Shown here in pieces: positions 3,354-23,787 of a stretch of DNA of 64,000 nt; position 1 is the stretch's first letter, and every line of letters starts with the position of its first letter. The translations under genes and the position numbers were made by a program. The stretch comes from an uncultured Chloroflexia bacterium (GTDB lineage: Bacteria > Chloroflexota > Anaerolineae > Anaerolineales > UBA4823). Location of the stretch: contig CAWELB010000007.1 in NCBI GenBank assembly GCA_963809805.1, positions 458,837 through 522,836 on the forward strand, given 5' to 3'. The notes beneath the pieces are model-generated. The model was not told where the DNA came from. It saw nothing but the letters and a program-made list of their open reading frames with translations, and made no database searches.

Positions 3354-3439
3354 TTTGGTAATTCATTCTCCTTATTATTACTGCTCTAAGTTTACTTCGT
3401 GGATCCCTCAGCAACATCCTCCCATTAGCTGGTTTTAAA

Positions 3440-3455: not shown

Positions 3456-3574
3456 GTTCATCCCCTCCTCCTGGCAGTGGAAAAGCAACGGTGGGTCGGA
3501 TAAGATGGTATTGTCCGAAAATCGCATGGGCTTTGTTAGAGAGATTCACATCCGTTTGTTGCATGGAGTAGAAG

Positions 3575-3673
3575 ATGAAAAAATTCCTAAAAATCCTGGC
3601 AGGATTGGCCGGTATCCTGGTACTGATCGTATTGATCGATATTTCGACCCTGTCGGTCTATTGGATGGTGTAA
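3575..3673 (+). CDS. 32-aa single-TM peptide (hypothetical)
   Basis: ATG at 3575 with GGAG 6 nt upstream. Translation MKKFLKILAGLAGILVLIVLIDISTLSVYWMV. Below the ORF-track length cutoff. Confidence 0.3.
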   Translation: MKKFLKILAGLAGILVLIVLIDISTLSVYWMV

Positions 3674-3684
3674 AGGTTCGCCTG

Positions 3685-4040
3685 ATGAAATTCTCCAACT
3701 GGTTTTTCCTGCTCGTGGGTGTATCGATATTCGGTCAATGGGGATTTTCCCTGGCCAGTGGAGCAGTGCCAGAGTTAAAAACTGCCCCCTGCAGCTTGCA
3801 TTTCATCTGGTGGCAGAATTTGCCACCGCGATCAGTTTGATCGTTAGTGGGGTTGGGCTGCTACGGAACGATGTATGGGGAAGGCACTTTGGTCTGATTG
3901 CTGCAGGTTTATTGGGTTATACAGTGGTCGTCAGCCCGGGTTATTTTGCCCAATAAGGACAATGGCCATTGGTGGGCATGTTCGCTCTACTGCTGGTACT
4001 GGATGTGGTCTGCGCCACACGATTAATTGTGGACAGGTAA
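3685..4040 (+). pseudogene. multi-TM membrane protein gene disrupted by a frameshift at a C5 run and an in-frame TAA
   Basis: Frame 1 reads MKFSNWFFLLVGVSIFGQWGFSLASGAVPELKTAP. Helical membrane sequence then continues in frame 0 (LQLAFHLVAEFATAISLIVSGVGLL...GYFAQ). After the TAA at 3954-3956 it continues in-frame as GQWPLVGMFALLLVLDVVCATRLIVDR. One extra C at 3785-3789 would restore the frame. Confidence 0.45.
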
Positions 4041-4059
4041 CAATTTCCAGTTACCTGTC
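4032..4059. terminator. 10-bp perfect hairpin between convergent genes
   Basis: gacaggtaac (4032-4041), loop aatttcca, gttacctgtc (4050-4059). It overlaps both convergent stop codons. Confidence 0.45.
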
Positions 4060-4200
4060 TTTGGCAATTAATTTATAGACACCAAGTGCCACCAATGCTA
4101 CGATGGCTAAACCAGCCGAAACCCAGGGGCTTAGCATAGCTGTAAAAAGCACAAACAGCGCAACGATGATGGCAATGATTCCCTCAGTTTTAGAATTCAC
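4051..4200 (-). CDS. 49-aa 2-TM membrane peptide (hypothetical)
   Basis: GTG at 4200 with a GAGGAG SD (4207-4212 rc), immediately downstream of the SDR gene. Translation VNSKTEGIIAIIVALFVLFTAMLSPWVSAGLAIVALVALGVYKLIAKDR. Below the ORF-track cutoff. Confidence 0.35.
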   Translation of the reverse strand: MNSKTEGIIAIIVALFVLFTAMLSPWVSAGLAIVALVALGVYKLIAKDR

Positions 4201-4213: not shown

Positions 4214-5413
4214 TCATTTTAGAATATTTTCAAGCTCGTTCACTTCATCCCGCCAACCATACACATGGCGCAGGTTTTCTTCAAGCCTGGCAGCATTCTT
4301 TTCATAGCCTTTTGCCAATTCAGCCAGATGGTCATAATAGCTGGCAAGCTTTGATAGTGGCAGCAAGGTGATGTTGCCGTCACCTTGTAAACTCGTTCCC
4401 AATCGCGTCAGTGCATCGAGCCATTCTTCCGCACTCATGCCAGCGGTTTTTCTAAAATCACGGATCACCCACTGCCGTTCAAAGAGCGAGCGTTTCTTCC
4501 AATCACTGGATTGCTCAGCAAGCGTGGTCCGCACCCGCTCACAGAGTATTGCAGCTTGTTTCCTCCGGTCAGCACCAAACTTCTCAGTGCCCTGAGCAGC
4601 CTCCAGGGCGCCATAGTTTATATTGGCGGCTCTCAACGCCTGCATGGATGATATCTCCATCCCTTTGAACCGCTCGGCGAAGACGATGGATACGGCGAAG
4701 CCTGCCCCGGCTTCTTCCGGAGTTAAAATGGCATTTTTGTTCAGCGTATAAAACTCCTCCAGGCTCATGCCCATCAGAGGGGCAAGCTGTCTCACCGCAC
4801 TGGTGGCGGTTTCTGTCGGTACCAGACCCGGACCGATGGTGTAGGCAATCACGCCGCTGCCTTCCAACTCTGCGTCCAGGGTGTTTGCCAGGTGGACTTG
4901 TGCAGCTTTGAAAGTTTCGTATCCACCGAGATACGCAGTACCCGTAGATGAAACACATACGAATGTTCCGTGCCTGCGGGCGATCATATCCGGCAAAAAC
5001 ACCCTTGCCATTAATACCGGACCGCGCAAATTGACCCGGTAGCTGGAGTCCCATTCCTCGATGGGAAGATCCTTCACCAAGCCGAGTACGGCGATGGTGG
5101 CATTATTGATGACTGCATCCACTTTACCAAATTGTTTGCACGATTCTTGGTACAGGTGCATCACACTGGATTCATCTCCAACATCAATATTAATGAAGGA
5201 CACACGCTGAGGATCGAATTCCGCGGAGAGGTGCTCCGCCGCGGAGGCACCAATCGCATGGTTGATTTCCGCAATGACTACGCTCGCTCCCAACCAGAGC
5301 AGTGCCCTCGCAGCTTCATAACCAATCCCTCCCCCCGCACCGGTGACAATAACCACCTCACCGGAAAGAGAACCGGGCTTTAATCCAAGCTGTGAAATGA
5401 CGAGAGTATTCAT
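4214..5413 (-). CDS. SDR-family oxidoreductase with a ~130-aa C-terminal helical extension
   Basis: TGAGGGIG Rossmann motif near the N-terminus, an NNAT-type motif, and a catalytic YETFK (YxxxK). Confidence 0.8.
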   Translation of the reverse strand: MNTLVISQLGLKPGSLSGEVVIVTGAGGGIGYEAARALLWLGASVVIAEINHAIGASAAEHLSAEFDPQRVSFINIDVGDESSVMHLYQESCKQFGKVDAVINNATIAVLGLVKDLPIEEWDSSYRVNLRGPVLMARVFLPDMIARRHGTFVCVSSTGTAYLGGYETFKAAQVHLANTLDAELEGSGVIAYTIGPGLVPTETATSAVRQLAPLMGMSLEEFYTLNKNAILTPEEAGAGFAVSIVFAERFKGMEISSMQALRAANINYGALEAAQGTEKFGADRRKQAAILCERVRTTLAEQSSDWKKRSLFERQWVIRDFRKTAGMSAEEWLDALTRLGTSLQGDGNITLLPLSKLASYYDHLAELAKGYEKNAARLEENLRHVYGWRDEVNELENILK

Positions 5414-5478: not shown

Positions 5479-6471
5479 TTATAACTGAGCTCGCAGCCAT
5501 GAAGTAATTGTATCAACCGAATCCGGGTCTAGCATTACATCATCCGCACTATAAGAAGCCATGGCATCGGCAGGTGTGATCTGCGACCGGGGCTTGGGTT
5601 CGAATTTCAAGACATGGTTGGCATTTTCCATGTAGGCTATGGTGATATTCGTGAGCTCTTTGGCGACCGCTTCGAAAAGGGGTCCATCAGTCTGCCAGTC
5701 TACCTGGATATCTTTCTTGCCGATAACAATCAAAACAGGAACTGAAGTTTCGTCTAGCTTTGTTGCCGGATTAAATATCCACAATTCTCGGGCAAAAGGT
5801 TGATTGATGGGTTGGGTGACTGCCTGGATCACCTGCTGTAATAATGTGGGTAGATTTTCGTCCACTGGCACGGGACGCCCCGCGATGAATTCATTTATTG
5901 CGGTCTCGTAGGCAGTGAGCAATGAGTCCCCACCGGGAACTGCTGCCAGTTGAGCCGCGATTTGGCTGTGCGCCAGCTCGCCAGTGGCACGCGCGAATGG
6001 GGAAGTGAGTACCATTCCTGCAAATGGATGATTCTTTCCCTGGGTTTGATAGTTGAGTGCATGCACGCAACCTTCACTGTTGGTCAAGGCAAATATCTTT
6101 GCTGGATCCACGTCTTTTTCACCGAGAAGCAAGTTCACTCCGCCTGCCAATTCAGCACTATGACCTTGCATGCTGATTTTGCCTGCCAAAAGTTTCATAT
6201 TTTCAACTACATGGGGACCAGACGCACGCTTATCATACCGCAAGGTTATGAAACCATGCTTGGTTAACTCCTGCGCGAGTAAAGCCGCACTGCCGTTGGT
6301 GCCCGGGATTATGGGTGTGTTCCAATTACGGTCCGTTGGACCACTACCAGCTACAAAAATCACTGCCGGGAAGGGTCCTAAACCCTGAGGGCGGGTTAGG
6401 GAAGCAAAGACCTCAATGTCATCCACTATCCAGGATACGGATTCTTCGTTAGTATGATTATTATGGGACAT
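5479..6471 (-). CDS. alpha/beta hydrolase family protein
   Basis: 330 aa. Alpha/beta-fold-like pattern with a nucleophile-elbow-like TNSEGC and a late His (NANHVL). Confidence 0.65.
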   Translation of the reverse strand: MSHNNHTNEESVSWIVDDIEVFASLTRPQGLGPFPAVIFVAGSGPTDRNWNTPIIPGTNGSAALLAQELTKHGFITLRYDKRASGPHVVENMKLLAGKISMQGHSAELAGGVNLLLGEKDVDPAKIFALTNSEGCVHALNYQTQGKNHPFAGMVLTSPFARATGELAHSQIAAQLAAVPGGDSLLTAYETAINEFIAGRPVPVDENLPTLLQQVIQAVTQPINQPFARELWIFNPATKLDETSVPVLIVIGKKDIQVDWQTDGPLFEAVAKELTNITIAYMENANHVLKFEPKPRSQITPADAMASYSADDVMLDPDSVDTITSWLRAQL

Positions 6472-6501: not shown

Positions 6502-8013
6502 TCAGTTATTTATTCCTGGCTCACTTGTTTTACTCGGGTTTGTCACTTCCAACCCACATCGGTTGATCACCAGGTTTCCATCCATGAACAGCGCCTGGAC
6601 GGGCTTTCCGACCAGATGGAAATCCTGTAAAGGATCACCATCCAGCACTACTAGATCGGCGGTTTTACCTGTTCGGATGGACCCAAACTGAGCATCCAAT
6701 CCCATCGAACAGGCGCTTTGGATCGTTGCTGCGCGCAGGAGGTCCGCGGGTGTTATGGCTGGTTTTCCTTCAAAATTGAGCAAGAAATCCAGCATGGCAA
6801 GTTCATAGCGGATATCCGCCGCCGAACAGTTCGTGGGTCCGGCATCATTACCTGTTCCCAGGCGAGAGATCGCTCCATGCTTCACCAGCAGCCTGAGGTT
6901 TTGACCGCCGGTTGGGATCAATTTGGCAAAATACCGGAAAGGTTCACTGATATCCATAATTCCGTAAACCTTCAGCTTTCCCTTGTTCAGGGCCTCATTC
7001 AGGGCAAGTCGTGTCGGTAAAAGTTCGGGAATCCAGGTCTCTTCCACCATAGATCGATAACTTTGCTCCCTGAAATGATCCAGACGCTGAAGCTCGGGGT
7101 GACCCGAAAATGGACTGCCTTTGATGTTGTAACTCATGAAGTACCCTACAGAAAGGGTGGGCTCGAGGCGAGTAGTAGAGTTCTCCAATAAGGTAGCATC
7201 AGACTCATCAAGGTCATGATCAATTGGAATGTGAGCCAGCGAACCGATTCCCGCCTTGATTCCATGACGGAACCCGGCTGCCGTTACATTGTGCATCGTA
7301 GTCGGCATTCCTCGTCGTTCTGCCTGGTCAACCGCTGCGATAAGCTGTTCAGCTGACATCACCTGTGCGCCGGGTTTGTAGCTCATAAAATGCTCGGGCT
7401 GGTCGCAAAACTTGATGGCTGCCGCGCCACGTTCATCGACCGCCCGATTGACTGCATCGCGCACCTCTTGTAAGGATGCATCTGGTCGAAAGACTACCAC
7501 CCCGGAAGTGGGCAATTTATAATCAATAACCTTGAGACCGATCAATGAAAAGGAGAATCGGGTCATGATACTGGGGCGGGGGGCGTAGGTGCCACCCAAT
7601 GGGCTGACATGGACTGCCTGGTGGATGCGAGGACCCAAGATCTCGCCTTTATTAATTCGCCCAATCCAATTCCGGTTAAGCTGGAGGTCATAACACAGCG
7701 TATCGCGCACGTTGGTTACCCCCCGCTTGATACAGTCATGAAGGTTCTTTGCAATTTGCTTCTGGCCAATCTCATCCTGCTGTAGGAACTGTAAATGGCA
7801 GTGAGTATTGAACAATCCTGGGATCAAAGTCATGCCATGCAGATCTATCACCGCCTCGGCGGGCGCCTGGTCCGATTCCCCCGCTTGTCCTGGCATGGCA
7901 AGGATTTTTCCATTTTGGATAACCAGGCTAACCTGGTCAGGAAAGTAACAGCCATTCTCGACATCGACAATACGAGCGTTTATCAATTGGATCCGGTCAT
8001 GGATAGCAGGCAT
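6502..8013 (-). CDS. metal-dependent amidohydrolase family protein
   Basis: N-terminal LIPGLFNTHCHL (HxH metal motif) and a C-terminal ...GKTADLVVLDGDPL... typical of the amidohydrolase superfamily. Confidence 0.8.
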   Translation of the reverse strand: MPAIHDRIQLINARIVDVENGCYFPDQVSLVIQNGKILAMPGQAGESDQAPAEAVIDLHGMTLIPGLFNTHCHLQFLQQDEIGQKQIAKNLHDCIKRGVTNVRDTLCYDLQLNRNWIGRINKGEILGPRIHQAVHVSPLGGTYAPRPSIMTRFSFSLIGLKVIDYKLPTSGVVVFRPDASLQEVRDAVNRAVDERGAAAIKFCDQPEHFMSYKPGAQVMSAEQLIAAVDQAERRGMPTTMHNVTAAGFRHGIKAGIGSLAHIPIDHDLDESDATLLENSTTRLEPTLSVGYFMSYNIKGSPFSGHPELQRLDHFREQSYRSMVEETWIPELLPTRLALNEALNKGKLKVYGIMDISEPFRYFAKLIPTGGQNLRLLVKHGAISRLGTGNDAGPTNCSAADIRYELAMLDFLLNFEGKPAITPADLLRAATIQSACSMGLDAQFGSIRTGKTADLVVLDGDPLQDFHLVGKPVQALFMDGNLVINRCGLEVTNPSKTSEPGINN

Positions 8014-8017: not shown

Positions 8018-9562
8018 TTATTCTCCTTTTATTACTGCAACAAACGATTTTTTATCCTTCTTGCATTGTCTCCAGATGACTTCTCTCGCGGTAGCGACAC
8101 CGCTGGGTAGCCCACCTCCAGGATAAACCCAATGACCGGTCATCCAGAAATTCTCCAGCCCTGGCAGGGTCTTGGGGATTTTAGCCAAGGCTTGCGCTGG
8201 TGTCAGCTTCCAGCCAGTGATGCTGCCCTTCAGGTTGCCGGTCATACGCTCGAAAGTGAGGGGGGTGGCAACATTGATCATTTCCACCTGCGCCGAGATG
8301 CCGGGCCAGATTTGCTCAATCGCGTCCAAATAAGCCCGGGAAATGTTCTCTTTCTCGACTTCATACGCACTGCGGTCTGACTCAAGTGATTTCCAAAATT
8401 CGTGGTCGGTGAAGATCGCCGAAGTCAGCACGGTCTTCCCCGTTGGAGCAAAACATGGATCTTCATTGCGGATACGGATTGGGATCATTTTATGCGCTTG
8501 TCCGGCAATCGATACGGGCGTGTGAAGCTCGAAGGCATTTCCTTCCACCGAAAATGGATAGTCGGAGAAAGTCCGCTTTACACCCGCGCTTACGTAGATC
8601 ACCGGCTGGATTGGTACCCAATGATCGTAGCGCTCGTGAATCTCTTTATCGGTGAATTTTCCTTCCAGAAGCTTGAAGATTGTGGTGTATCCATCCGCGC
8701 CAGAAACAACCACATCCGCTCTCTGTTCACTACCATCTTCGAACTGTACCCCCACCGCGCATCCCTCTTCGACCAGGATTTTTTCAACCCGTGACTGGTA
8801 TTTCACCCGTCCGCCAAGCTTCTTATATTGCTTTTCAAGAGTAAGCGCCATTGGCAAGGACCCACCCAGAGGATATGCGGCTTGATTTCTATACATGAAG
8901 CCCATTTGTGATAAGATCATGTAGAAGACGGAGAAGTCTGGCTCGAATGAATAGAGTAAGGCATTGCGTAGCAGCGGACTTTTAAAGCGTTCCGCAAGCT
9001 CCTTAACGGTGAGCTTGCTCCACTTTTGCACATCTTTCAAAAGTGGGAGAATCCCAAAGACGAATTTCATCCAGGCAAATGTCCCCGCCTCATATTGTTC
9101 CTTCATAGGCGGTTTGAAGCGGATGGCAAGCCGTATCCCATCGGCCAATTCATGGATTACGCTGGCATCTTCCGGCGCAAGATCCAGCAGGTGGGCCTCG
9201 AGCCGGTCGGGATCACAGTAAAAATTAACCCTTTGCCCATCCTTAGAATGGTATACGCCATAACGGTCGTGCTGTAGAAAATTACGACCTTCAAGCAAGC
9301 CGATTTCGTTCCAATAACGGTTCAGAAAGAATCCCGGACCGGATCCAGCCAGCCAATGGATGCACAGATCGATCAGGTAGCCTTTGCGCCGCCAGGCAGT
9401 AACCAGCCCACCCGGGATTTTGTGTTTCTCAATGATCTGCGTCTTATAGCCATTCATTTGCCCATAGATGCCGGTACATAGCCCGGCGACCCCGGCGCCA
9501 ATGATCAGGATGGATTTATCGGTCACAGCTGCGCCACCTTTCTCGAGGTCAAGACATCGCAA
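8018..9562 (-). CDS. FAD/NAD(P)-dependent oxidoreductase, phytoene-desaturase (CrtI)-like
   Basis: ILIIGAGVAGL dinucleotide-binding motif. The ~510-aa length and the C-terminal GHWVYPGGGLPSG are typical of CrtI-type amine-oxidase-fold enzymes. Its stop lies 4 nt upstream of the next gene's start. Confidence 0.75.
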   Translation of the reverse strand: MRCLDLEKGGAAVTDKSILIIGAGVAGLCTGIYGQMNGYKTQIIEKHKIPGGLVTAWRRKGYLIDLCIHWLAGSGPGFFLNRYWNEIGLLEGRNFLQHDRYGVYHSKDGQRVNFYCDPDRLEAHLLDLAPEDASVIHELADGIRLAIRFKPPMKEQYEAGTFAWMKFVFGILPLLKDVQKWSKLTVKELAERFKSPLLRNALLYSFEPDFSVFYMILSQMGFMYRNQAAYPLGGSLPMALTLEKQYKKLGGRVKYQSRVEKILVEEGCAVGVQFEDGSEQRADVVVSGADGYTTIFKLLEGKFTDKEIHERYDHWVPIQPVIYVSAGVKRTFSDYPFSVEGNAFELHTPVSIAGQAHKMIPIRIRNEDPCFAPTGKTVLTSAIFTDHEFWKSLESDRSAYEVEKENISRAYLDAIEQIWPGISAQVEMINVATPLTFERMTGNLKGSITGWKLTPAQALAKIPKTLPGLENFWMTGHWVYPGGGLPSGVATAREVIWRQCKKDKKSFVAVIKGE

Positions 9563-9592: not shown

Positions 9593-10159
9593 TTACACAG
9601 CTATTCTCTTTTGCTGCTTCTGCTCATCAAGGATAATTAATCGCCCTACCACGGCCGCGATTAGTAATAAAACACCCGTTATCCACCCGCCGGTGCTGAA
9701 TCCAACGGGCAGATATTGTGCAAACAAGACACCTCCGCCGATCATCAAACCAGCTAGAATACTGAACTGCCACATTCCATACAAATAGCAAAAAGGTAGG
9801 TAGTGTGCACCGACTACAATCATGGCTGCCGGGTAGAACCAGTTTAGCTTAGCCAGGGTGGCAGCACCCACCAGAAGGAATCCGATCGGCACGGTAAATG
9901 CTATTTGCATCGCCAGCTGGTTCAGAGTGTTTCCTGGGCTGAGATTGGGTCTGCGCCCGATCAAATGTAACATCAGCTGAGTAAGTGGAAATATGAATAA
10001 ACCACCCAAGAATAACCCAAGCATTCCATAAATTGGGGCAACCCAGGTAGCTAGAGCTGCAGAGGCCAACCAAATAATCCCGGAAACCATTTGCCCGGCG
10101 AAGCCCCCCAGGAAGACGGTGCGCATTTCTCGCTGAGCTTCGTTTATGTTCATGTTCAT
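9593..10159 (-). CDS. polytopic membrane protein, unknown function
   Basis: 188 aa with about 5-6 hydrophobic helices. GAGGAG SD upstream of the ATG at 10159. Confidence 0.6.
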   Translation of the reverse strand: MNMNINEAQREMRTVFLGGFAGQMVSGIIWLASAALATWVAPIYGMLGLFLGGLFIFPLTQLMLHLIGRRPNLSPGNTLNQLAMQIAFTVPIGFLLVGAATLAKLNWFYPAAMIVVGAHYLPFCYLYGMWQFSILAGLMIGGGVLFAQYLPVGFSTGGWITGVLLLIAAVVGRLIILDEQKQQKRIAV

Positions 10160-10309
10160 TTCTCCTCAGGTATGTCAGTATATTGACTCGTCAGTGTAAT
10201 CATTGTTTTTCGGTTGGTAGAAGTCCCTGCGACGAAAATGTGAATGAAATGCGATGGCTTGATCATAGCTGGTTGACGTGGTGAATACCTCCGCCAATAG
10301 GGGAGTATT

Positions 10310-10329
10310 TACTGTCCAGGTGGACAGTA
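10310..10329 (-). promoter_or_regulatory. perfect 20-bp dyad TACTGTCC-AGGT-GGACAGTA with TAAATACT box (minus strand); candidate promoter/operator of 9593..10159
   Basis: Read directly. On the minus strand: GAAC-N20-TAAATA, with the dyad filling the spacer. Confidence 0.4.
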
Positions 10330-10353
10330 CAGTTCGACTTTGGAAAAATACCT

Positions 10354-10812
10354 TTACGGACCGGGCTGCCGGATGTAATCGCTCACATCCACGTTGTAGT
10401 CCATCTCTTCAAGCGTGAATACCGCCCAGGCCTTTCCTTGATCGAACCAGGTAGCTGATCCTGTCGTGCTTAGTTGGGTACCGGGGATGTTTTTGCCTGG
10501 CAGGTTTTTGGTGATCCAAAGGATTTTCCTGGCTTGTGTGCCAGCATCCCTGTAGCGCATGGCCTCCATGGTGTCTAATAAACCTGTGGCGGGATCGAAA
10601 CGCGTGACGAAATTTTCTTCATTTTCACCAAATGGAATATAGAGTAAGGCTGTCTTTTCATCCACAGGCTCCCAGTGGACACGTTTGTCAGTCAGCCATA
10701 TCGAAGGGAACCAGGCTGCCTCTGCCCACAGACCTAGTACTGCCCCCTGAGTGATGCTGGGATCGTTGTCAAAAGTCCCAATGGGCAGCTCAAAATGGCT
10801 GTTGCCGTCCAC
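10354..10812 (-). CDS. hypothetical protein, possibly a 5'-truncated remnant
   Basis: 152-aa ORF. The only in-frame start is a GTG with no SD, and an in-frame TGA lies 6 codons upstream. The sequence looks like a soluble beta-rich domain. Confidence 0.45.
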   Translation of the reverse strand: MDGNSHFELPIGTFDNDPSITQGAVLGLWAEAAWFPSIWLTDKRVHWEPVDEKTALLYIPFGENEENFVTRFDPATGLLDTMEAMRYRDAGTQARKILWITKNLPGKNIPGTQLSTTGSATWFDQGKAWAVFTLEEMDYNVDVSDYIRQPGP

Positions 10813-10898
10813 GTAGCTCTCATTGGAAAATCAATGGTTTCATAATCAGTATATTGGTTTTTAAATCGAAACTCCCCCACCTAAGGGGGAGTTTTATA

Positions 10899-10914
10899 CT
10901 GTCCGAATGGATAG
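10899..10914 (-). promoter_or_regulatory. dyad CTGTCC-GAAT-GGATAG with TATAAAACT box (minus strand)
   Basis: Read directly. Its centre is 94.5 nt upstream of position 10812. Transcription from the box would run straight into a perfect 10-bp hairpin (10869-10878/10885-10894). Confidence 0.4.
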
Positions 10915-10929
10915 GTTGTTTAGCGCAGC

Positions 10930-11679
10930 TTATTTATTTCCAAGCGATTTGAATTGTCCTATCCCTGATGAATTTGTGCTGGTCTGCGGACTGCCATAAT
11001 AGGAGACATTCCCGGCACCGCTGATATTACCAGTCAGCTGGTTTGTCACCCACAGGGTGGTTCCACCCAATCCCGAGATGGTTACGTTAGCAGTCTGGAT
11101 TTTTAAGTCTGGTGCATTCACATTGCCCGCACCAGATATATCTATAGAAGTCTGGGTAGCCTGACCAGACACATCAATTCCTCCCAGCCCACTGATGGAT
11201 ATTTTGAGATTATCGGTCGTGATCTGGTTTTGTGTAACTTTGCCAGCTCCACTCAGGTTTATTGCCATGCTAGGGGTTGATAGCGTTTCAACCTGGACGT
11301 CTCCAGCCCCACTGACTGCCAGGGAGGTGAGGTCTTTGACCACGATGGTGAAGGTCAACATATTCTCGCTGGTTAATGTGGAGACGGTAATATTATCTTT
11401 GGTCTTGATAATGAGGGTTTTGTTATTTACCGTGGTGGTGATTTCCGGTACCAGGTTGTCGGGTCCTGATATGTTAAGCGATTCTTGATCACCCTGCATG
11501 ATGTTGACTTTTCCAAATGTACTAAATTCTATCGCATTAAAACCACTGACATTGCGATTCTCACTGATGAGTACATTGGACGGAGTGAGCACCTTGACAC
11601 CCGCTTGCGATAAAATGCCGCAGCTTACGAGTAGTGTGGATATGAGTAACAAGGAAATAACGCTGGTTCGTGTTTTCAT
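10930..11679 (-). CDS. lipoprotein with DUF2807/GIN (putative adhesin head) repeats
   Basis: Signal peptide plus LVSCG lipobox. Repeated ISGAGNV / LSGAGKV / ISGLGG beta-helix-like motifs characteristic of the GIN/DUF2807 family. Confidence 0.7.
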   Translation of the reverse strand: MKTRTSVISLLLISTLLVSCGILSQAGVKVLTPSNVLISENRNVSGFNAIEFSTFGKVNIMQGDQESLNISGPDNLVPEITTTVNNKTLIIKTKDNITVSTLTSENMLTFTIVVKDLTSLAVSGAGDVQVETLSTPSMAINLSGAGKVTQNQITTDNLKISISGLGGIDVSGQATQTSIDISGAGNVNAPDLKIQTANVTISGLGGTTLWVTNQLTGNISGAGNVSYYGSPQTSTNSSGIGQFKSLGNK

Positions 11680-11789
11680 TCTATATATCCTTTCAGATGA
11701 TTGAATTGATTGAAGATCACGTATATTATTATAATAATATACCTGCGAAATTAGTACCCCTATCGATGGGGGAGTTATTACCTGTCCGG

Positions 11790-11809
11790 ACGGACAGGTG
11801 TTTGGATAG
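11790..11809 (-). promoter_or_regulatory. perfect 20-bp dyad ACCTGTCC-GGAC-GGACAGGT with TAATAACT box (minus strand); candidate promoter/operator of 10930..11679
   Basis: Read directly. On the minus strand: AAAC-N19-TAATAA, with the dyad in the spacer. Confidence 0.4.
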
Positions 11810-11919
11810 GGCTAAGAATTCCGGGATGAATTGACCCAATCTTAATACAAGACCAGAATTTTTCGAGACCCGGTATGATCTTGAGAGGCTCTGGGATCAA
11901 TGCATTTCAGGTAAATTTT

Positions 11920-12627
11920 CTAAAACATAATGACGACCAGGTTCATGGCAGCATGCAGGAATATCGAAGGATACACACTTTCGGTCTTTGAACGGGCAAT
12001 ACCATATACGATCCCCCAAATCGTAGCATTGAGCACCTGGATAACAATGAACTGGAGCGGAACACCAGCATTCAGGTTGTTGGCATGCAGCAGACCGAAT
12101 GCAATTCCGCTAAGCACTACTGTCAGGCGGTTGCTGGTGGTCTCTGGAAAAATCCTGCGTAGAACTTGAAGGAGGATGATGAAGACGAGACCTCGCCAGA
12201 ACAGCTCTTCCACGAATGGAACGGTAACCACTTCCGTTACAAGCCATTGATTGCCGCTGTACGGAGTTGTGCTGCCAGTTAACCACAGGTACGCCGCAAT
12301 CACACCGCAATTGGCGAGCAGCATGATCAATAGCATACGCCAGTGCTGCCAGATTTTGCCAATTTGGAGACCAAATGAACGCGGCCGCCAGATGGCGAGT
12401 GGTATTATGAAGATGAGCAGATGGAGGCGTTGGACTACTCCCCACGCCAGGGCGAGCCAGGCAGATGTTCCAACATTGGGAAACCACGAGTTGCTGAACT
12501 TGTAATACACATTATCGACCACCAGGAAGAGTGCGACGAACGCTAATAATCCTGTGAATACGAGAATGGTTAACCAGAATCGTCTCGACCTTGGTAATGA
12601 ATTTGTCTCCAGCGCATAATTATTCAT
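11920..12627 (-). CDS. CPBP-family intramembrane glutamic endopeptidase (CAAX protease/Abi-like)
   Basis: Motifs EELFWRG, FGLLHANN and FLHAAMN in a 7-8 TM protein. Confidence 0.8.
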   Translation of the reverse strand: MNNYALETNSLPRSRRFWLTILVFTGLLAFVALFLVVDNVYYKFSNSWFPNVGTSAWLALAWGVVQRLHLLIFIIPLAIWRPRSFGLQIGKIWQHWRMLLIMLLANCGVIAAYLWLTGSTTPYSGNQWLVTEVVTVPFVEELFWRGLVFIILLQVLRRIFPETTSNRLTVVLSGIAFGLLHANNLNAGVPLQFIVIQVLNATIWGIVYGIARSKTESVYPSIFLHAAMNLVVIMF

Positions 12628-12749
12628 CGTTAATCCTTAAAAAAAGTGATCTCCTACCGCAAGGGTAGCTTTCATCTGTTGATAAAAAGTGGTTTAGAAC
12701 GATTTCTACTGCTAGAACCCACTCCGAACTGGAAGAGTTTCGACCTTGA

Positions 12750-13214
12750 TTAACGAATACAACAAGCCAGGCGCACTTTGGTAATTTCAGCTTCAATATA
12801 CGCCTGACCCAGGCAGCGTGCCACCGAGATCCGATGGTGACCGTCACGGACATAGTACTCTCCATCCACTTCAACCAGCTCAACTGGAGGCAGCACATGA
12901 CCACGCAAGTTTTCGGCGGCGATATTCAACCATCGATTGCGGGAAATTTCCTTGGTGGGGAAAAACCTTGCATCGAAGGCATCGCCCTTGCCTTCTGAGC
13001 CGTGAATCTGATCGATTGGAACCGGGTGGATCCCGATGTAATGACTGTTTTGAATGCTGTTACAGCATAATGCCCCTGCGAGATTAAGTAAATGTATCGG
13101 CTGGTGAACAAAGCGAGCCCAAAGGCGGTGAAACCAACCCTTTACAGTTGATCGCCAATAGAGGGACACGGTTTGGCTAATTGGGGTTGGGGGATTTAGG
13201 CTGTCTGAGATCAT
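12750..13214 (-). CDS. ParB N-terminal-domain (ParB/sulfiredoxin-like) protein
   Basis: PPVELVEVDGEYYVRDGHHRISVAR, a DGHHR-type ParB-like nuclease-domain motif. GGAGGAAACC SD upstream of the ATG at 13214. Confidence 0.6.
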   Translation of the reverse strand: MISDSLNPPTPISQTVSLYWRSTVKGWFHRLWARFVHQPIHLLNLAGALCCNSIQNSHYIGIHPVPIDQIHGSEGKGDAFDARFFPTKEISRNRWLNIAAENLRGHVLPPVELVEVDGEYYVRDGHHRISVARCLGQAYIEAEITKVRLACCIR

Positions 13215-13301
13215 GGTTTCCTCCGTGTCATCGATCTATTCACGATGCTAAGTCTACAACCTGGCGGGATTTTATCCCTCCGGCGCAAGTCCAGTATTTA
13301 C

Positions 13302-13317
13302 CTATCCAAATGGTTAG
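13302..13317 (-). promoter_or_regulatory. imperfect dyad CTATCC-AAAT-GGTTAG with TAAATACT box (minus strand), in the divergent region between the ParB-like gene and the kinase operon
   Basis: Read directly. Its centre is 95.5 nt upstream of the start codon at 13214. Confidence 0.35.
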
Positions 13318-13411
13318 TTAATGGTATTATTGCATCTTGTGTTAGAAGCATTACTGGTATGGCGCGATTAGCTAGCGTTGGTGTTAATCACGTTATAGGT
13401 AATAGTTTCCC

Positions 13412-15013
13412 ATGTCTAAAATCACAAACGATAACAACCCTGAGCCTCTGAAAATAGAAAAATTCAATCATTCCGATATGCGCTTTAGGATCATGTTCGA
13501 TACCGCCGCAGTTGGGATTGGGATGCTTAGCCTGGATCGCAAGCTAATGGATGCCAACCCGGCTTTATGCCGTATGTTTGGATACACACGCGAAGAGTTC
13601 ATCGGTGAAAACCCCTCATTGGTCACTTATTCCGAGGATGCTGCTGTCTCTGCACGACAGTTTACTGAATTGTTGTCCAGCAAGGACGATTATTTCTGGG
13701 GTGAAAGACGCTACGTTCGCAAGAACGGAGAAGTTTTTTGGGCTCAAGTCACCATGTCGGTCGTGCGTGACGAGATCGGCAAGCCCCTTTACATCGTGGG
13801 AATGCTGATAGATATCAACGAACAGAAAAGAACGGTGGGTGAATTACAACAATCCGAGGCACGTTTCAAGGCTATCTTCGATAATACCTCAGTTGGAATT
13901 GCCCTCACCGACCTCAACCGCAAGATTATACAAGTTAATGAAGCAGCCGCTCGTATCACCGGATATTCCCGTGATGAGCTGGAAAAAATTGATCCGGTAG
14001 AGCTCTCTATACCAGAGGATCGCTTGATTGGACAGGAAGCATTGCAGGAAATGCTTGCGGGTCGACGCGATGGTATGACCGTTGAACGCCGCTATATGCG
14101 TAAGAACCATGAGATATTTTGGGGGCGGGTTACCTATTCATTGGTGCGAAATCGGATCGGTAAACCACTTTACCTGATCGGTTTAATCGAAGATATCAAC
14201 GAGCAAAAACTGGCAGAAGTAAAATTAGATGAACAGCAAGCAGAGTACCGTCGAAACCTGGAACAAAGAGTTGAAGCCAGGACCCGTGAATTAAGCGAAA
14301 CCAATCTACAGCTGGTCAACGAAATTGAACAACGCCAGCAAGCCGAAGATGCTCTGGCTGCCAAGGCTGTCGAGGAAGCCATCCTGGCAGAGCGCACCCG
14401 CCTGGCACATGATCTCCACGATGCTGTAACGCAGACTCTTTTTTCCGCCAGCCTGATTGCTGAAGTTCTCCCTGAGCTATGGGAGATAAATCCCGAGGAA
14501 GCACGTAAGAGCAACGAGGAATTGCGCCAGCTCACCCGCGGAGCATTGGCCGAGATGCGCACCCTGCTTTTTGAGCTGCGCCCGGCTGCATTAACCCAGG
14601 CACGTTTCCCCGACCTGGTCAGGCAATTATGTGATGCGGTGATTGGGCGGGCACGCCTGAGCGTAAACCTTTCGGTCAGTGGTAATTATGAGCTGCCAGC
14701 TGATATCAAAGTGTCATTTTATCGAATTGCTCAGGAGAGCTTGAATAATATTGTGAAGTATTCCCGCGCTACCCAGGTTGATATTTCGATTTCCTTAGAT
14801 TGCTGTGACGTACGCATGGATGTCATCGATGATGGCGTCGGATTCGATAGCGCCAATATCAAGCCAACCAGCCTGGGTATGCGCATCATGCGTGAGCGGG
14901 CGGAAGCCATCCATGCACGATTGAATATCTCGAGCACGCCCGGCAAGGGCACACGGGTGGGCGTGGTATGGAATGAAGATGAGTTGATCCCAATCTCTAA
15001 GCTTACAAAATAA
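13412..15013 (+). CDS. soluble sensor histidine kinase (PAS-PAS-coiled coil-HisKA_3-HATPase_c)
   Basis: No N-terminal TM segment. Two PAS-like repeats (...RYVRKNGEVFWAQV..., ...RYMRKNHEIFWGRV...). H-box LAHDLHDAVTQTL, N-box QESLNNIVKYS, and DDGVGF. Confidence 0.85.
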   Translation: MSKITNDNNPEPLKIEKFNHSDMRFRIMFDTAAVGIGMLSLDRKLMDANPALCRMFGYTREEFIGENPSLVTYSEDAAVSARQFTELLSSKDDYFWGERRYVRKNGEVFWAQVTMSVVRDEIGKPLYIVGMLIDINEQKRTVGELQQSEARFKAIFDNTSVGIALTDLNRKIIQVNEAAARITGYSRDELEKIDPVELSIPEDRLIGQEALQEMLAGRRDGMTVERRYMRKNHEIFWGRVTYSLVRNRIGKPLYLIGLIEDINEQKLAEVKLDEQQAEYRRNLEQRVEARTRELSETNLQLVNEIEQRQQAEDALAAKAVEEAILAERTRLAHDLHDAVTQTLFSASLIAEVLPELWEINPEEARKSNEELRQLTRGALAEMRTLLFELRPAALTQARFPDLVRQLCDAVIGRARLSVNLSVSGNYELPADIKVSFYRIAQESLNNIVKYSRATQVDISISLDCCDVRMDVIDDGVGFDSANIKPTSLGMRIMRERAEAIHARLNISSTPGKGTRVGVVWNEDELIPISKLTK

Positions 15014-15025: not shown

Positions 15026-15655
15026 ATGTCTCCCATTCGCGTAATATTGGTGGATGACCACGCCGTCGTCAGGAGCGGGTTAAGTAAGTTTTTGATGGTT
15101 AATAAGGATATGGAGCTGGTTGGTGAAGCTTCAGATGGTATGGAAGCTGTGCAAGCGGCAGGAATGTACAAACCTGATGTGATCTTGATGGACCTGTTGA
15201 TGCCCGGGATGGATGGTATTACTGCCACGCGTGAAATCCACCAGAAATATCCTCATGTCAAGATCATTGCTCTCACCAGCTTCTCCGAGCAAAATATGGT
15301 CCAGGGTGCTTTACAAGCCGGTGCGGTAGGATACCTGCAAAAGAATGTAACTGCAATGGAGCTTGCGAACGCGATCCGCTCGGCGTATACCGGTCGAATG
15401 GTGCTTTCACCGGAAGCGACCCAGGTATTAGCGCAAGCAGTGACTCAATCGCACCTGCCGGGAAACGGTCTCACCGAACGTGAACGGGATGTGTTGCGCT
15501 GCATGGTCGAAGGGATGAATAATAATGAGATCGCCGAGAAGCTGGTGGTCAGTCTGGGCACAGTCAAGTTTCACATCTCAAATATCTTTCAGAAATTGGG
15601 TGTGGGTAGCCGTGTCGAAGCAGTGAAGATGGCGATAGAGCAAAAAATTGTTTGA
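15026..15655 (+). CDS. NarL/FixJ-family response regulator (REC + LuxR-type HTH)
   Basis: DDH...DVILMDLLMPGMDG receiver motifs. C-terminal LTERERDVLRCMVEGMNNNEIAEKLVVSLGTVKFHISNIFQKLGV. Starts 12 nt after the kinase stop. Confidence 0.9.
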   Translation: MSPIRVILVDDHAVVRSGLSKFLMVNKDMELVGEASDGMEAVQAAGMYKPDVILMDLLMPGMDGITATREIHQKYPHVKIIALTSFSEQNMVQGALQAGAVGYLQKNVTAMELANAIRSAYTGRMVLSPEATQVLAQAVTQSHLPGNGLTERERDVLRCMVEGMNNNEIAEKLVVSLGTVKFHISNIFQKLGVGSRVEAVKMAIEQKIV

Positions 15656-15679
15656 TGGCTTTACCTGTATGAGGAGTCA

Positions 15680-15710
15680 AGAGCGATGGAAAGCACCATC
15701 GCTCTTTTAT
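15680..15710 (+). terminator. rho-independent terminator of the kinase/regulator operon
   Basis: agagcgatgg (15680-15689), loop aaagca, ccatcgctct (15696-15705), followed by tttatttaa. Confidence 0.6.
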
Positions 15711-15782
15711 TTAACCTATCCATCTGACTAGGAGGAAACCCGACTTATGATAGATGCATTCAGATTGGCATACAGATAGACT

Positions 15783-16193
15783 ATGGATGAGGAAAAAATG
15801 ACTCGAATATTGATCGCAGATCCCGACTCTGCCAGTCGAAATGCATTAAGCCTGTTGCTCATCCAAAAATTGGGAATTACCGACCTATATGAAGCTGTTG
15901 ACACAGAGACCCTGATCAAATCTTTGGCGGAGCATCCACTTGATATCCTGCTGCTTGATTGGAGACTTTACGGCGCTCCAGCACCTGAAACATGCCGCCT
16001 GATCCTAAAAGCATATCCAAATATTAGGATCGTCTTGCTCAGCGTGGATGCTAATGATTGCTGCACTGCCCTGGAAGCCGGAGCGGGATTCATTCATAAG
16101 GGCTCCTCACCTTGGGACGCACTGGCGGTGCTTGAACCTTTGGTGAATAAGCAGGATAAAGAGCGAGAGAAAGACGAACAACCTGACGAATAG
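15783..16193 (+). CDS. stand-alone receiver-domain protein (single-domain response regulator)
   Basis: ILIADPD..., LLLDW (phospho-acceptor Asp), LLSVD, IHKG. No output domain, and an acidic/basic tail. The start may be the internal ATG at 15798. Confidence 0.75.
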   Translation: MDEEKMTRILIADPDSASRNALSLLLIQKLGITDLYEAVDTETLIKSLAEHPLDILLLDWRLYGAPAPETCRLILKAYPNIRIVLLSVDANDCCTALEAGAGFIHKGSSPWDALAVLEPLVNKQDKEREKDEQPDE

Positions 16194-17289: not shown

Positions 17290-18375
17290 CTACTGGACTT
17301 CTAATATCACCGGTCGGGCGATGCCATCGATAATGATCGTTGGCCAGTTGGGTATCTCGGTGAGAATCTGATTCTCGGTCTCCCGAACCAGGATGGTATC
17401 TTCAGATTTACAGCCGGTGATCGAGGGATTCCAGGCGTATGCCTGCCCAACGATGACCCGGTCGGTCGATCCAGGCACCGCCAGGTACTCACGCGGTTCA
17501 TAACCCGAAGTACCACCCTGGTGGTGCTTTTGCCATTCATCAGGAAAGCCGGTTGCCGCATAGGTTGCCGCGGCCTTGCTAAAAATATCTCCCAACGTAG
17601 TCCCCGGCCGGGTGGACCTGATAAAGGTCGCATCGACCCTGGCACAGGCTTCCATCTTCTGCCTCAATTCATCCGGCAGCTTGCCAAAATGCACCAGGCG
17701 TGTGAGCGAGCAAACCAGACCATGTTTCCTCCCGCATAGGATCAGCATGGCATATCTCTCGAGCTTTTTGGCGGTCGGTAATGGGTGGCGATAGGAGGAT
17801 ATGCGTTCGTCGGTAGCGATCAGATTAACAGTTGCCTGCACACCCTCCCCTTCTGCTTCCTCAGCCAAACTGGCAGCAATTTCAAACTCCGTTTGCCCCG
17901 GTCTGACCGTTTTGATGGCAGCATCCATCGCATGAGCGCAAATTTTCCCTAAATCCTGGAAGCGCCCCCCCTCTTCAGGCGTCAGGTTGGCGCGTAACCT
18001 GGCCAGGTCAGCTGATAGATCAACCGCCCCTGGGAAGGGTGCATCTGAGGCGAGGTTTGCACCACGGCACAATTCCCGAATATCGGCCTGGCTGGCGGCA
18101 TACCATGGCGTCACCTGAAACTCCCAACCCTGGGTACCCAATTGTTCTTCTTTTTCAAGGCGTGGTGCCTCAATATTAGTTGTGATCAAATATTGGTGAT
18201 CCATAGTAATAAGCAATGCTGCGAGGCCGTTGGTGGAAGCTGTATTTATGTAAGAAGCTGCTCCGCCTGTAGCCCAGGCGAAACTGCCTACGCTCTGCAT
18301 GTACAGGGCTCCCAGATTGCGTCCGGTCATCCAGGTACGAATGATCTCAAGTTTGCGTTTTTGTTCACTCACCAT
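17290..18375 (-). CDS. M24-family metallopeptidase (Xaa-Pro aminopeptidase/creatinase-like)
   Basis: 361 aa. Pita-bread-fold-like C-terminal half (HHQGGTSGYEPREY..., SEDTILV). Confidence 0.65.
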   Translation of the reverse strand: MVSEQKRKLEIIRTWMTGRNLGALYMQSVGSFAWATGGAASYINTASTNGLAALLITMDHQYLITTNIEAPRLEKEEQLGTQGWEFQVTPWYAASQADIRELCRGANLASDAPFPGAVDLSADLARLRANLTPEEGGRFQDLGKICAHAMDAAIKTVRPGQTEFEIAASLAEEAEGEGVQATVNLIATDERISSYRHPLPTAKKLERYAMLILCGRKHGLVCSLTRLVHFGKLPDELRQKMEACARVDATFIRSTRPGTTLGDIFSKAAATYAATGFPDEWQKHHQGGTSGYEPREYLAVPGSTDRVIVGQAYAWNPSITGCKSEDTILVRETENQILTEIPNWPTIIIDGIARPVILEVQ

Positions 18376-18481
18376 ATCACCTCAATAGTTTAAGAGCGCA
18401 GTGACAAAGTGTTTTACTCACAGAGCGATACGAAGATGATGAATTCACACCCGATCTGTGCAGCTCACTTTAATTTTGAAA

Positions 18482-19444
18482 TTAAGCCCAGAACATTTTC
18501 CCTGGGTTTTCCACCGTAACCGCCTCACGTAATGCTGCCAGACCCTTTTTGACACCCTCATCAAAAGACATCATTCCATCTTCGTGTTCGAGCGACATCA
18601 CATGATCGTATCCAACCATACGTAATGCTGAAACAATATCCTTCCACACTTTTAGGTCGTGACCGTAACCAATCGTGCGGAAAGTCCAGGATCGGTGGGG
18701 AATATCGGAGTAATTCTTATGGTCATTACAGCCGTTCACGGCAATGTTATATGGATCGACGTAGCAATCTTTGGCGTGTACGTGCACAATTGCATCCCCC
18801 AGCTTGCGAATGGCAGCCACCGGGTCAACCCCATTCCAAAACAAATGGCTGGGGTCAAAATTACATCCCATCGCCTCGCCACACGCCTCGCGCATGCGCA
18901 GCATGGTCTCAACATTGTAAATAAGCATGCCGGGGTGCATCTCCACTCCGATTTTCACGTGACGCTCTTCGGCAAATTTAGACGCGCGCCTCCAATAAGG
19001 GATGGCTACTTGGTTCCATTGGTACTCCAGGATCTCAAGAAAATAGGGTGGCCAGGGGCAGGTGACCCAATTGGGCGTTTTATCGGTAGGTGAGCCTGCC
19101 GGGAGACCAGCCATCAGGTTTATCGCCGGCACGCCGCACATTTCAGCCAAACGTACTGTTTTCCTGAACAGCTCATCCGAATCCGTTGCGATTTGCTTGT
19201 CCGGATGGAGGGGATTCCAATGACAGCTGAAAGCACTGATGATCATGCCGCGTTCTTCTACTGCTTTTAGATAAGCTCGACGTTTTTCTTCGCTTGCCAA
19301 CAGCTCGTCAATGGGACAGTGATGCGCCCCAGGGAACCCGCCGGTGCCGAACTCTACGGCTGTAGCGCCGAACGACAAAATCTTATCCAGGGCTGCTTCA
19401 AAGGGAAGCTGTTGGAAAATCACTGAAAGGACACCGATCCGCAT
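18482..19444 (-). CDS. sugar phosphate isomerase/epimerase (xylose-isomerase-like TIM barrel) 1
   Basis: MRIGVLSVIF... with AP-endonuclease-2/XI-like TIM pattern (E..H..D..E metal-ligand spacing: GVEMHPG, HVHAKD, LEHED). Confidence 0.8.
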   Translation of the reverse strand: MRIGVLSVIFQQLPFEAALDKILSFGATAVEFGTGGFPGAHHCPIDELLASEEKRRAYLKAVEERGMIISAFSCHWNPLHPDKQIATDSDELFRKTVRLAEMCGVPAINLMAGLPAGSPTDKTPNWVTCPWPPYFLEILEYQWNQVAIPYWRRASKFAEERHVKIGVEMHPGMLIYNVETMLRMREACGEAMGCNFDPSHLFWNGVDPVAAIRKLGDAIVHVHAKDCYVDPYNIAVNGCNDHKNYSDIPHRSWTFRTIGYGHDLKVWKDIVSALRMVGYDHVMSLEHEDGMMSFDEGVKKGLAALREAVTVENPGKMFWA

Positions 19445-19470
19445 AGTTACTCCTGTCTAAAAATCTGGTA

Positions 19471-20298
19471 TCAGATAAGCTTACTGAGATGCTCAAAACT
19501 CCGCATGGCATCAGGAACTGAGCCGCATTCGACGCTGAAGACGATATCATTGGGGCATTGTTTCACGATATCAATCATCCGCTTCCAGTCCACAACCCCA
19601 TCACCACAGGCACATCCGGTCGGCGTGCCGGTAACTTTCCCAAGTTTTTCATCACTCTGCGCCATGCTGATATCTTTGGCATGCAGATGCACCAGGTGAT
19701 CCAACACGTGGGTGAGCCACTCATAGGTATCCGTGGTTCCCGCCAGATAGCTGTTGCCAGTATCGTAATTGATCCCAATGGCAGGTGATTTAACCAGGTT
19801 ATAGATGCTATCCAGCCCCTCCATAGATTTTGAATACTGCTGGTGCGGTTCGAGACCAATTTTAATCCCATGCCTTTCTGCCACTCGAGCAGCTTCAGTC
19901 AGGGTATAAGTCATCAAGGTGTAATCCATCTCTTTGGTGGTCCACAAAGGCTTCGGACCCTCATCGGTATTTACAACTGGTGCGCCTGCATCAGCCGCCC
20001 AGCGGATTGCCTGCTTTAGATATTCAACACCAATCTCAGGTTTGCACAATGTCGTGTGCGCGGATAGACCTGAGAGTTTGATATGATGCCTGTCACACAG
20101 CTCGCGCACCCCTAATGGATCGTCATACATGGATACGCTGTGAAAATAACCAGCTTCACTTAGCAATTCCCGACCCCAATGAACCATGGGCTCTATGTAT
20201 TGATAGCCAATTTCTGCAGCTTTCTCAACCCCCCAGGCGAAGGGTTTATCGTGCGAGCGAACAAATTCCATATTCACGCCAAGATATATTTTTCCCAT
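19471..20298 (-). CDS. sugar phosphate isomerase/epimerase (XI-like TIM barrel) 2
   Basis: GLEPH, HLHAKD and SVEC motifs; 275 aa. Confidence 0.8.
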   Translation of the reverse strand: MGKIYLGVNMEFVRSHDKPFAWGVEKAAEIGYQYIEPMVHWGRELLSEAGYFHSVSMYDDPLGVRELCDRHHIKLSGLSAHTTLCKPEIGVEYLKQAIRWAADAGAPVVNTDEGPKPLWTTKEMDYTLMTYTLTEAARVAERHGIKIGLEPHQQYSKSMEGLDSIYNLVKSPAIGINYDTGNSYLAGTTDTYEWLTHVLDHLVHLHAKDISMAQSDEKLGKVTGTPTGCACGDGVVDWKRMIDIVKQCPNDIVFSVECGSVPDAMRSFEHLSKLI

Positions 20299-23784: not shown

Positions 23785-23787
23785 TCC

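Follow-up and report, generated by a model that had tools for sequence, protein, structure and literature searches.

Response regulators of the NarL/FixJ type bind DNA as helix-turn-helix (HTH) dimers on inverted repeats of 16-20 bp, as in the heptamer pairs of NarL (7-2-7) and the 20-bp palindrome of DosR, and such a dimer placed on an inverted repeat upstream of a promoter that lacks a -35 element is a textbook mechanism. The signals of NarL and DosR (nitrate and hypoxia) are well studied, and their regulons, which use half-sites other than the one described below, are dispersed genome-wide. In this family the recognition helix reads guanines through its central lysine, and the footprints of LiaR and VraR are extended, taking in weak secondary sites; both have been modelled as DNA-bending tetramers, and VraR contacts sigma (PMC4482077). 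The LiaR/CesR box measures 25 bp, a 16-bp inverted repeat together with the A-stretch beside it, and the repeat by itself is not bound (PMC4447274). CviR/CsuR, a LuxR-type protein of Chromobacterium, binds CTGNCC-N4-GGNCAG, with the ideal/csuI site CTGTCCGATAGGACAG at -69 to -84 (PMC12114271). Here we describe an intergenic dyad, CTRTCC-N4-GGAYAG, that recurs beside the genes of a PAS-domain histidine kinase and a NarL-type regulator in a 64-kb stretch of DNA from an uncultured, Anaerolineae-like member of the Chloroflexota (contig CAWELB010000007.1; the whole stretch is called the window below). We consider it probable that the dyad belongs to the upstream half of an activator-dependent promoter of ~67 bp, and that the phosphorylated regulator activates seven such promoters, all without a -35 element.

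With at most one mismatch allowed, the dyad pattern matches the window five times (3440-3455, 10312-10327, 10899-10914, 11782-11797 and 13302-13317) versus 0.37 matches expected, and none of 100 shuffles reached five. All five copies are intergenic and confined to 3.4-13.3 kb of the window; none was found in its coding sequence or in the remaining 50 kb. The count confirms the recurrent dyad with five intergenic copies that a first-pass annotation of the same DNA had reported, and the minus-strand strings quoted there agree with the window sequence. Its distances of 94.5, 94.5, 95.5 and 160.5 nt between dyad centre and start codon are right as well, but the third copy does not lie at 11790-11809, where it had been placed, and its centre is 110.5 rather than 120.5 nt from the start codon at 11679. 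A sixth, weaker dyad (two mismatches) occupies 15716-15731, between the regulator gene and a single-receiver gene. The copy at 3440-3455 is used in both directions by two divergent promoters, and the observation is thereby extended to seven promoters on six dyads (sites A to F, in the order of the window).

The dyad is only one part of a longer conserved unit. In an ungapped alignment centred on it (24 sites, later 27, from the window and ten related metagenomic lineages), the palindrome extends to an imperfect ACCTRTCC-N4-GGAYAGGT of 16-20 bp. Three nucleotides past the dyad, at a fixed distance in all sites, lies an A-rich box, AAWAC(T/C) (the TAAATACT box of the first-pass annotation), in which A+5 and A+7 are each conserved in 24 of the 27 sites and C+8 in every one. 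A linker with a sparse skeleton follows (C+13 in 26/27, G+18 in 27/27, G+22 in 25/27 and G+25 in 26/27). Exactly 45 nt downstream of the dyad, 25 of the 27 sites carry a hexamer of the form [TG]AnnnT, usually TATACT, TATGAT, TATCCT, TAGACT or GATACT; in the other two it stands at 44 nt, and these two have an A-box shorter by 1 nt. At any other offset between 0 and 79 such a hexamer is present in 0-4 sites, with the exception of a GAnnnT peak of nine at offset 24, a position within the linker skeleton. A single dyad lacks the hexamer: at position 7915 of lineage L011, an rve-family insertion sequence (L011 7027-7930) lies directly downstream of dyad and A-box, in place of the rest of the module.

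The +45 hexamer, with T1, A2 and T6, is patterned like a sigma-70 -10 element and lies 21-108 nt upstream of start codons, and we take it as the putative -10. On this assignment the dyad would span about -73 to -58, with its centre at about -65.5, and the A-box about -54 to -49; transcription is predicted to start near 3382, 3513, 10255, 10841, 11724, 13244 and 15789. A scan of the window with the sigma-70 consensus called none of these promoters, a silence that is to be read as the predicted absence of a -35 element and not of promoters. A class II position (-41.5) for the primary dyad was dropped, there being no -10-like hexamer 21 nt after it. Promoters of extracytoplasmic function (ECF) sigma factors or of sigma-54 were likewise set aside: the conserved hexamer is TAnnnT, and neither GG-N10-GC nor a CGT motif is present.

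The first-pass annotation had arranged the same parts differently. It took the TAAATACT box for the -10, let the dyad fill an over-long spacer of 19-20 bp behind an upstream (A/G)AAC element, as under a MerR-type activator, and had transcripts begin at a CCCC hairpin; a repressor bound in the spacer would be a variant of this arrangement. The box is indeed A/T-rich and held 3 nt from the dyad in all sites, and an AAC-like triplet often precedes the dyad. Its constant bases, however, are A+7 and C+8 rather than T1/A2/T6, its final base is C in 10/27 sites, and a properly patterned TAnnnT is conserved far better at +45, which puts the dyad outside the spacer. The AAC proves to be the outer part of the 20-bp palindrome. 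A start set by the box would, moreover, run into hairpins with T-tracts at several sites; in L010:4801, L011:1729 and L012:6231 they follow within 30 nt, and in several relatives the terminator is a perfect one, for example AAAACTCCTCC...GGGGAGTTTTTTT in L010. No MerR-family gene was found among the window genes screened or in any syntenic locus. We therefore judge this arrangement improbable and keep to the module with its -10 at +45.

A weight matrix built from the sites of other genomes only, and run over the window ungapped, scored every window dyad except site B (five of six), in six promoter orientations and at 26-64 bits; the best of 20 shuffles reached 1.6. Site B remained unscored because its A-box is 1 nt shorter. 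The matrix had no match in the 16-64 kb part of the window. An initial degenerate pattern (dyad arm plus box) gave near-chance matches over the window and missed real sites.

Five syntenic lineages (L004/5, L006-9, L010, L011 and L012/13) came from contigs that encode kinases 68-76% identical to that of the window. Their regulators are 76-87% identical, and many of the kinase homologues are annotated as Anaerolineales or Anaerolineae; a kinase search of a species-representative genome collection returned only distant Pseudomonas kinases (24-25% identity) and no close relative. In all five lineages the kinase, regulator and receiver genes lie on one strand, and the divergent genes are drawn from one pool (DUF2807, DUF7010, DUF6544, CPBP, beta-lactamase-family, amidohydrolase, LiaF-TM-like, amine oxidase and SDR). 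The dyad, with 0-2 mismatches in syntenic loci, stands upstream of the DUF2807 gene in every lineage that has one (L004, L006, L011 and L012), and upstream of beta-lactamase-family, LiaF-TM-like and CPBP genes in relatives; between the regulator and receiver genes it is always present (L004, L006, L010, L011, L012, L015 and L017). Several similar copies of ~30 bp within 13 kb could also suggest a selfish repeat of the REP (repetitive extragenic palindrome) or MITE (miniature inverted-repeat transposable element) kind that spread within the locus. We give this hardly any credence. The copies share functional positions only, the intervening sequence is unrelated, and this lack of conservation around the dyads argues against recent repeat copies. 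They also recur at matching places in front of orthologous genes, in genomes with only 68-87% protein identity, and they are missing from coding sequence and from the other 50 kb of the window.

The linker between A-box and hexamer appears to hold a second, degenerate copy of the site. Its skeleton, C+8-N4-C+13-N4-G+18-N4-R+23, is spaced like the C-N4-C-N4-G-N4-G of the primary dyad, and within the linker the best fit of the primary-dyad matrix is at offset +8 (mean -16.9 versus about -32 elsewhere). Skeleton and fit hold in tandem sites as well as in 14 sites without a co-directional upstream gene. The centre of the second site is 23 bp downstream of the first, at about -42.5, which is the position of class II activators and the usual place of the -35 hexamer. 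In our reading, the CCCC..GGGG linker would be a weak second regulator site that was made into the terminator of the preceding gene in head-to-tail arrays. Strong linker hairpins (-10 to -21 kcal/mol) are confined to sites preceded by a co-directional gene and to L018, whose upstream context is unknown, although not all such sites have one; those at C, L004:3658, L010:4801, L011:1729, L012:6231 and L018:3439 are of the terminator type, with a T-tract. At divergent and receiver sites the hairpin is absent or weak, and the base skeleton is still conserved there. The clearest case in the window is the linker of site C (10872-10891), a 10-bp stem (-18.6 kcal/mol) followed by TTTCGATTT and called terminator-like, which is the predicted nested terminator of the upstream DUF2807 gene. 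Site F has no hairpin in its linker; the intrinsic terminator of the regulator gene lies directly upstream of the dyad instead (15679-15706, plus strand; an 11-bp stem, then TTATTT). In tandem arrays the terminator of one gene and the promoter of the next would thus overlap, the former being an extension of the second site.

Receiver-gene promoters share an additional feature in this region: (T/C)(A/G)GATGC at +20 to +26 is common to the window (15748-15757), L004, L006, L010, L011 and L012. It is a stricter form of the linker skeleton and lies at the -35 position.

Since dyad and CCCC..GGGG stem are both self-complementary, and the second stem with its T's is terminator-like at site C and strong in several tandem sites, the two could be transcribed hairpins that act at the RNA level, either as a terminator or stabiliser in the 3' untranslated region or as an attenuator in the 5' untranslated region. 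We hold this to be very improbable. What is conserved in the dyad is its sequence and not its pairing, with mismatched pairs in 6/27 sites at positions 3/14 and in 11/27 at positions 4/13. A compensatory G>A and C>T change between the arms, which the first-pass annotation had offered as a sign of conserved symmetry, does not survive: site C reads CTATCC/GGACAG and site E CTAACC/GGATAG, the joint counts at positions 3/14 (AT 11, GT 8, AC 6 and GC 2 in 27 sites) are close to those predicted by independence (about 12, 7, 5 and 3), and the arm mismatches include A-C and T-C pairs. Arms that vary independently show no covariation of the RNA type and fit two protein-contacted half-sites, CTRKCC. In divergent regions (A, E, L010:9712, L011:9885 and L012:9828) the element is present although no gene upstream is there to be terminated; site A works both ways, the skeleton is conserved where no hairpin forms, and the window has no Rfam match. 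A scan of the window for tRNAs also came back empty.

The dyad is thus best treated as a protein-binding site, and its most likely binder, as predicted from the comparison of loci, is the adjacent two-component response regulator (15026-15655). In a metagenome scan, this regulator retrieved 80 further loci at 39-80% identity. Loci whose regulator has the recognition helix SLGTVKFHISNIF(Q/H)KLGV contain 25 dyads in 181 kb of non-redundant sequence; in the 75 loci whose NarL-type regulator is a different one, 634 kb yielded five, roughly what chance would give. Every locus with this helix has a dyad, even contigs of 1-4 kb with little beyond the regulator gene, and the recognition region SLGTVKFHISNIFQKLGV is invariant in six orthologues. 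The comparative evidence thus supports both the choice of the LuxR/NarL-type regulator in the first-pass annotation, as the best candidate, and its view of the dyads as operators of a compact local regulon.

The solved structures closest to the regulator are VraR and LiaR (E = 6e-49 for 5hev, and 5e-44), and in NCBIfam the best matches are MadR and NarL, all below cut-offs. The LiaR lysine that contacts the guanines of C-N4-G (PMC4482077) is kept in the regulator, and the equivalents of LiaR K174 and T178 are G and F, which fits a shared core with different outer bases. In a sister clade with the helix SLSTVKYHISNIL, the same module has an altered right arm (CTGTCC-ACTT-GACCAG), and here helix and half-site may have changed together. 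The asymmetric variant CTRTCC-ACT(T/C)-GACCAG was seen at L021 4935 and 5644, L030 9406 and L032 2440, and also at L010 4801, each time with the skeleton and the +45 hexamer intact.

Starting from the observed conservation, fixed spacing and co-occurrence with the regulator, we infer which protein binds, that it activates, where transcription begins, what the second site does and that a signal is sensed, in the following scheme. The PAS kinase (13412-15013) would phosphorylate the VraR/LiaR-like NarL-family regulator, a dimer of which would occupy the strong palindrome. A second dimer would probably be recruited to the weak promoter-proximal site, and together the two would substitute for the absent -35 contact and turn on the seven promoters. 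The targets would be the 544-aa gene, the divergent small membrane open reading frame (ORF), the operon of DUF7010 with oxidase, amidohydrolase, hydrolase and SDR genes, the DUF6544 remnant, the Toastrack/DUF2807 lipoprotein, the 154-aa gene with the CPBP protease gene, and the stand-alone receiver.

Several points weigh against this scheme. The -10 is placed at the +45 hexamer by conservation alone, and -65.5 is not where the centre of a class I site would canonically lie. The second site scores negative with the primary-dyad matrix and could instead be a contact element for sigma or alpha, and a distance of 23 bp from one centre to the other puts the two sites slightly out of phase on the helix. 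From site E towards the kinase gene, inspection of the sequence found no hexamer at the required offset and hence no module of this type, so that autoregulation of the kinase-regulator operon is not evident. The term 'local regulon' refers to 64 kb of the source genome. Finally, L045, a more remote locus of kinase, regulator and receiver genes, has two perfect CTATCC-N4-GGATAG dyads (8060 and 10642) beside a regulator that is 55% identical and has another helix, SINTVRHHVRNILAKLEV; one dyad lies upstream of the kinase gene and one just past the regulator gene, the same relative positions, and neither has the A-box, the skeleton or the +45 hexamer. The link between helix and dyad is therefore not one-to-one.

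This locus, the 64 kb of the genome in view and the predicted status of binding by the regulator would all be compatible with another binder, namely a transcription factor encoded elsewhere for which the adjacent regulator is a mere target or neighbour, or with a regulator that represses, for example by looping. Both variants seem unlikely to us. No regulatory genes other than those of the kinase, regulator and receiver are conserved in all dyad-bearing loci, the dyad persists on the shortest contigs, and its geometry is that of GerE-type HTH dimers (PMC12114271, PMC4482077); as to repression, the lack of a -35 element argues for activation. Activation by the adjacent regulator thus stays our preferred explanation.

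A stronger version of it would make the 67-bp unit a rigid two-site cassette, with the dyad at about -65 and a cryptic dyad at about -42, exactly 23 bp apart, the second of which replaces the -35 and also folds as the upstream terminator. We find this doubtful, if worth stating for what it would entail: the same DNA would insulate and activate each gene of a tandem array, a terminator-promoter unit would have spread through the locus and been kept throughout an Anaerolineae clade, and the arrangement could define the wiring of a family of PAS-kinase/LiaR-like systems in the Chloroflexota.

Dyad A (CTATCCAAATGGATAG, 3440-3455) is an exact match, to which the foreign-site matrix gives 35.4 bits (minus strand) and 29.6 bits (plus strand). 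Its minus-strand module (3389-3457; putative -10 TAAACT at 3389-3394) would drive the 544-aa gene (1719-3353, minus strand), which is lipoprotein-like and without a Pfam or NCBIfam family. The plus-strand module (3438-3506; TAAGAT at 3501-3506) faces small membrane ORFs at 3575-3956 that are split over reading frames and likewise without a family assignment: a 32-aa hydrophobic ORF (3575-3673), then a 72-aa ORF in another frame with faint similarity to DUF2127/DUF7144. These ORFs appear to be pieces of one membrane-protein gene, interrupted by frameshifts or by errors of assembly.

Module B (10262-10329, minus strand), with its dyad at 10312-10327 and the shorter A-box, has TATGAT at 10262-10267 (offset 44) in front of the DUF7010 gene (9593-10159). 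It probably also drives the genes down to 4051 as one operon, as suggested by dyad-free gaps of 4-65 nt. These minus-strand genes encode an amine oxidase (8018-9562), an amidohydrolase (6502-8013), a hydrolase (5479-6471), a 399-aa SDR protein (4214-5413) and, as the last of the presumed operon, a 49-aa membrane ORF (4051-4200). A hairpin, ACAGGTAAC-N7-GTTACCTGT, lies at 4030-4056, just past this ORF, and is probably the terminator of the long operon.

The highest matrix score in the window (63.8 bits) belongs to module C (10848-10916, minus strand; dyad 10899-10914, TATACT at 10848-10853), though the gene it would drive is only a fragment. This gene (10354-10812, minus strand) encodes the C-terminal half of a DUF6544 (DUF6544/DUF6920) protein, covering positions 105-219 of the 221-position profile. 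Its GTG start is separated from the promoter by a 7-codon ORF, and the proteins of relatives are 187-271 aa long. Module D (11731-11799, minus strand; dyad 11782-11797, TATTAT at 11731-11736, 45.0 bits) precedes the DUF2807/Toastrack lipoprotein gene (10930-11679, minus strand), for whose product an exact-sequence database look-up gave no record.

In the region divergent with the kinase gene, module E (13251-13319, minus strand; dyad 13302-13317 with one mismatch, TAGACT at 13251-13256, 25.8 bits) would drive the 154-aa gene (12750-13214, minus strand) and probably also the CPBP/Rce1-like protease gene (11920-12627, minus strand). The 154-aa product belongs to no family, and the label 'ParB-like' given to it in the first-pass annotation finds no support in Pfam or NCBIfam, from which the assignments of the genes around the sites were taken. 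Module F (15714-15782, plus strand; dyad CTATCCATCTGACTAG at 15716-15731, TAGACT at 15777-15782, 51.8 bits) faces the stand-alone receiver gene (15798-16193, plus strand), a conserved dyad target in every lineage examined. We set the start of this gene at 15798 on the basis of alignment with orthologues; the ORF as called mechanically begins at 15783, in overlap with the predicted -10. The dyad centre is 74.5 nt from the start at 15798, the same in four of five related lineages and 73.5 nt in L011.

The kinase (13412-15013, plus strand) has the domain order PAS-PAS-HisKA_3-HATPase_c. Its PAS domains begin at residue 21 and leave no room for a transmembrane sensor, so that the protein, which has no transmembrane region, is presumably cytoplasmic. 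The regulator (15026-15655, plus strand), of the NarL/FixJ type, joins a Response_reg receiver (REC) domain to a GerE HTH domain.

Between 16 and 64 kb, the window carries genes for sugar utilisation, which have ROK and GntR regulators of their own, together with genes for an RNase II, a radical-SAM enzyme and a 2964-aa protein. The ORF of the 2964-aa protein spans 51363-60257 (minus strand); in L004 and L012, CLIPPER/Big_5-type repeat proteins of 2103-2432 aa adjoin the two-component system. The region 17290-26371 is syntenic with L010 13583-22328 (an M24 peptidase, three AP_endonuc_2 TIM-barrel proteins, a periplasmic sugar-binding protein and an ABC transporter), which places the regulon at a conserved chromosomal position.

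Taken as a whole, the analysis offers a sequence-level regulon for an uncharacterised two-component system of uncultured Anaerolineae-like bacteria, with operator, -10 and start positions predicted exactly. To our knowledge, almost no promoters or regulators have been defined by experiment in these bacteria. It would link DUF2807/Toastrack, DUF7010, DUF6544, a CPBP protease and the 544-aa protein to one pathway resembling the Lia-type envelope-stress modules. The features of most interest are the fixed 45-nt spacing and the terminators that overlap an activator-dependent promoter; the mechanism being a textbook one, the result should be useful rather than surprising to a specialist.

Among described systems, the MerR-type promoters share with this locus a dyad adjoining an A/T-rich, hexamer-like box. 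They differ from it in other respects: no MerR gene was found in the conserved neighbourhood, the box is without a -10 signature, and the putative -10 lies 45 nt downstream of the dyad, which is thus not in the spacer. The MerR analogy of the first-pass annotation is therefore not supported. The pattern found is that of NarL/FixJ operators, with a REC-GerE regulator and a HisKA_3 kinase adjoining the sites in all syntenic loci, a 6-4-6 inverted repeat, and co-occurrence of the two.

There are likenesses to the LiaFSR and VraSR cell-envelope-stress systems of Firmicutes. The regulator is nearest to the VraR and LiaR structures, the 16-bp inverted repeat with its C-N4-G core and A-rich stretch matches the ~25 bp of the LiaR/CesR boxes (PMC4447274), the recognised region would reach a weaker neighbour site as in LiaR and VraR (PMC4482077), and one target has the Toastrack domain (DUF2807), a fold common to LiaF and LiaG (PMC11237479), with a LiaI-LiaF-TM-like protein encoded in relatives. 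There are also differences: the skeleton is C(X)4C(X)4G(X)4G here and T(X)4C(X)4G(X)4A in LiaR, the K174 and T178 equivalents are G and F, and the kinase is a soluble PAS-PAS protein, whereas LiaS senses within the membrane and has two transmembrane helices and a HAMP domain. No LiaF is encoded in the window, and among relatives only L010 and L012 have a weakly LiaF-TM-like protein of 146-147 aa; no PspA-family gene (PspA/LiaH) was found among the targets in Pfam or NCBIfam. With its soluble kinase, its different box skeleton and neither LiaF nor PspA/LiaH, this Chloroflexota system is not a bona fide LiaFSR system. CviR, in turn, has the same half-sites, the GerE HTH fold and an activator position upstream of the core promoter (PMC12114271), but it is an acyl-homoserine-lactone receptor of an unrelated organism, and neither a fixed 45-nt module nor a second-site skeleton has been described for it. 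By analogy with the LiaR/CesR, VraR and CviR sites, the element would work like an activator site of the NarL/LuxR type: the dyad regulon is new, and the mechanism itself is the one already known for NarL-type regulators.

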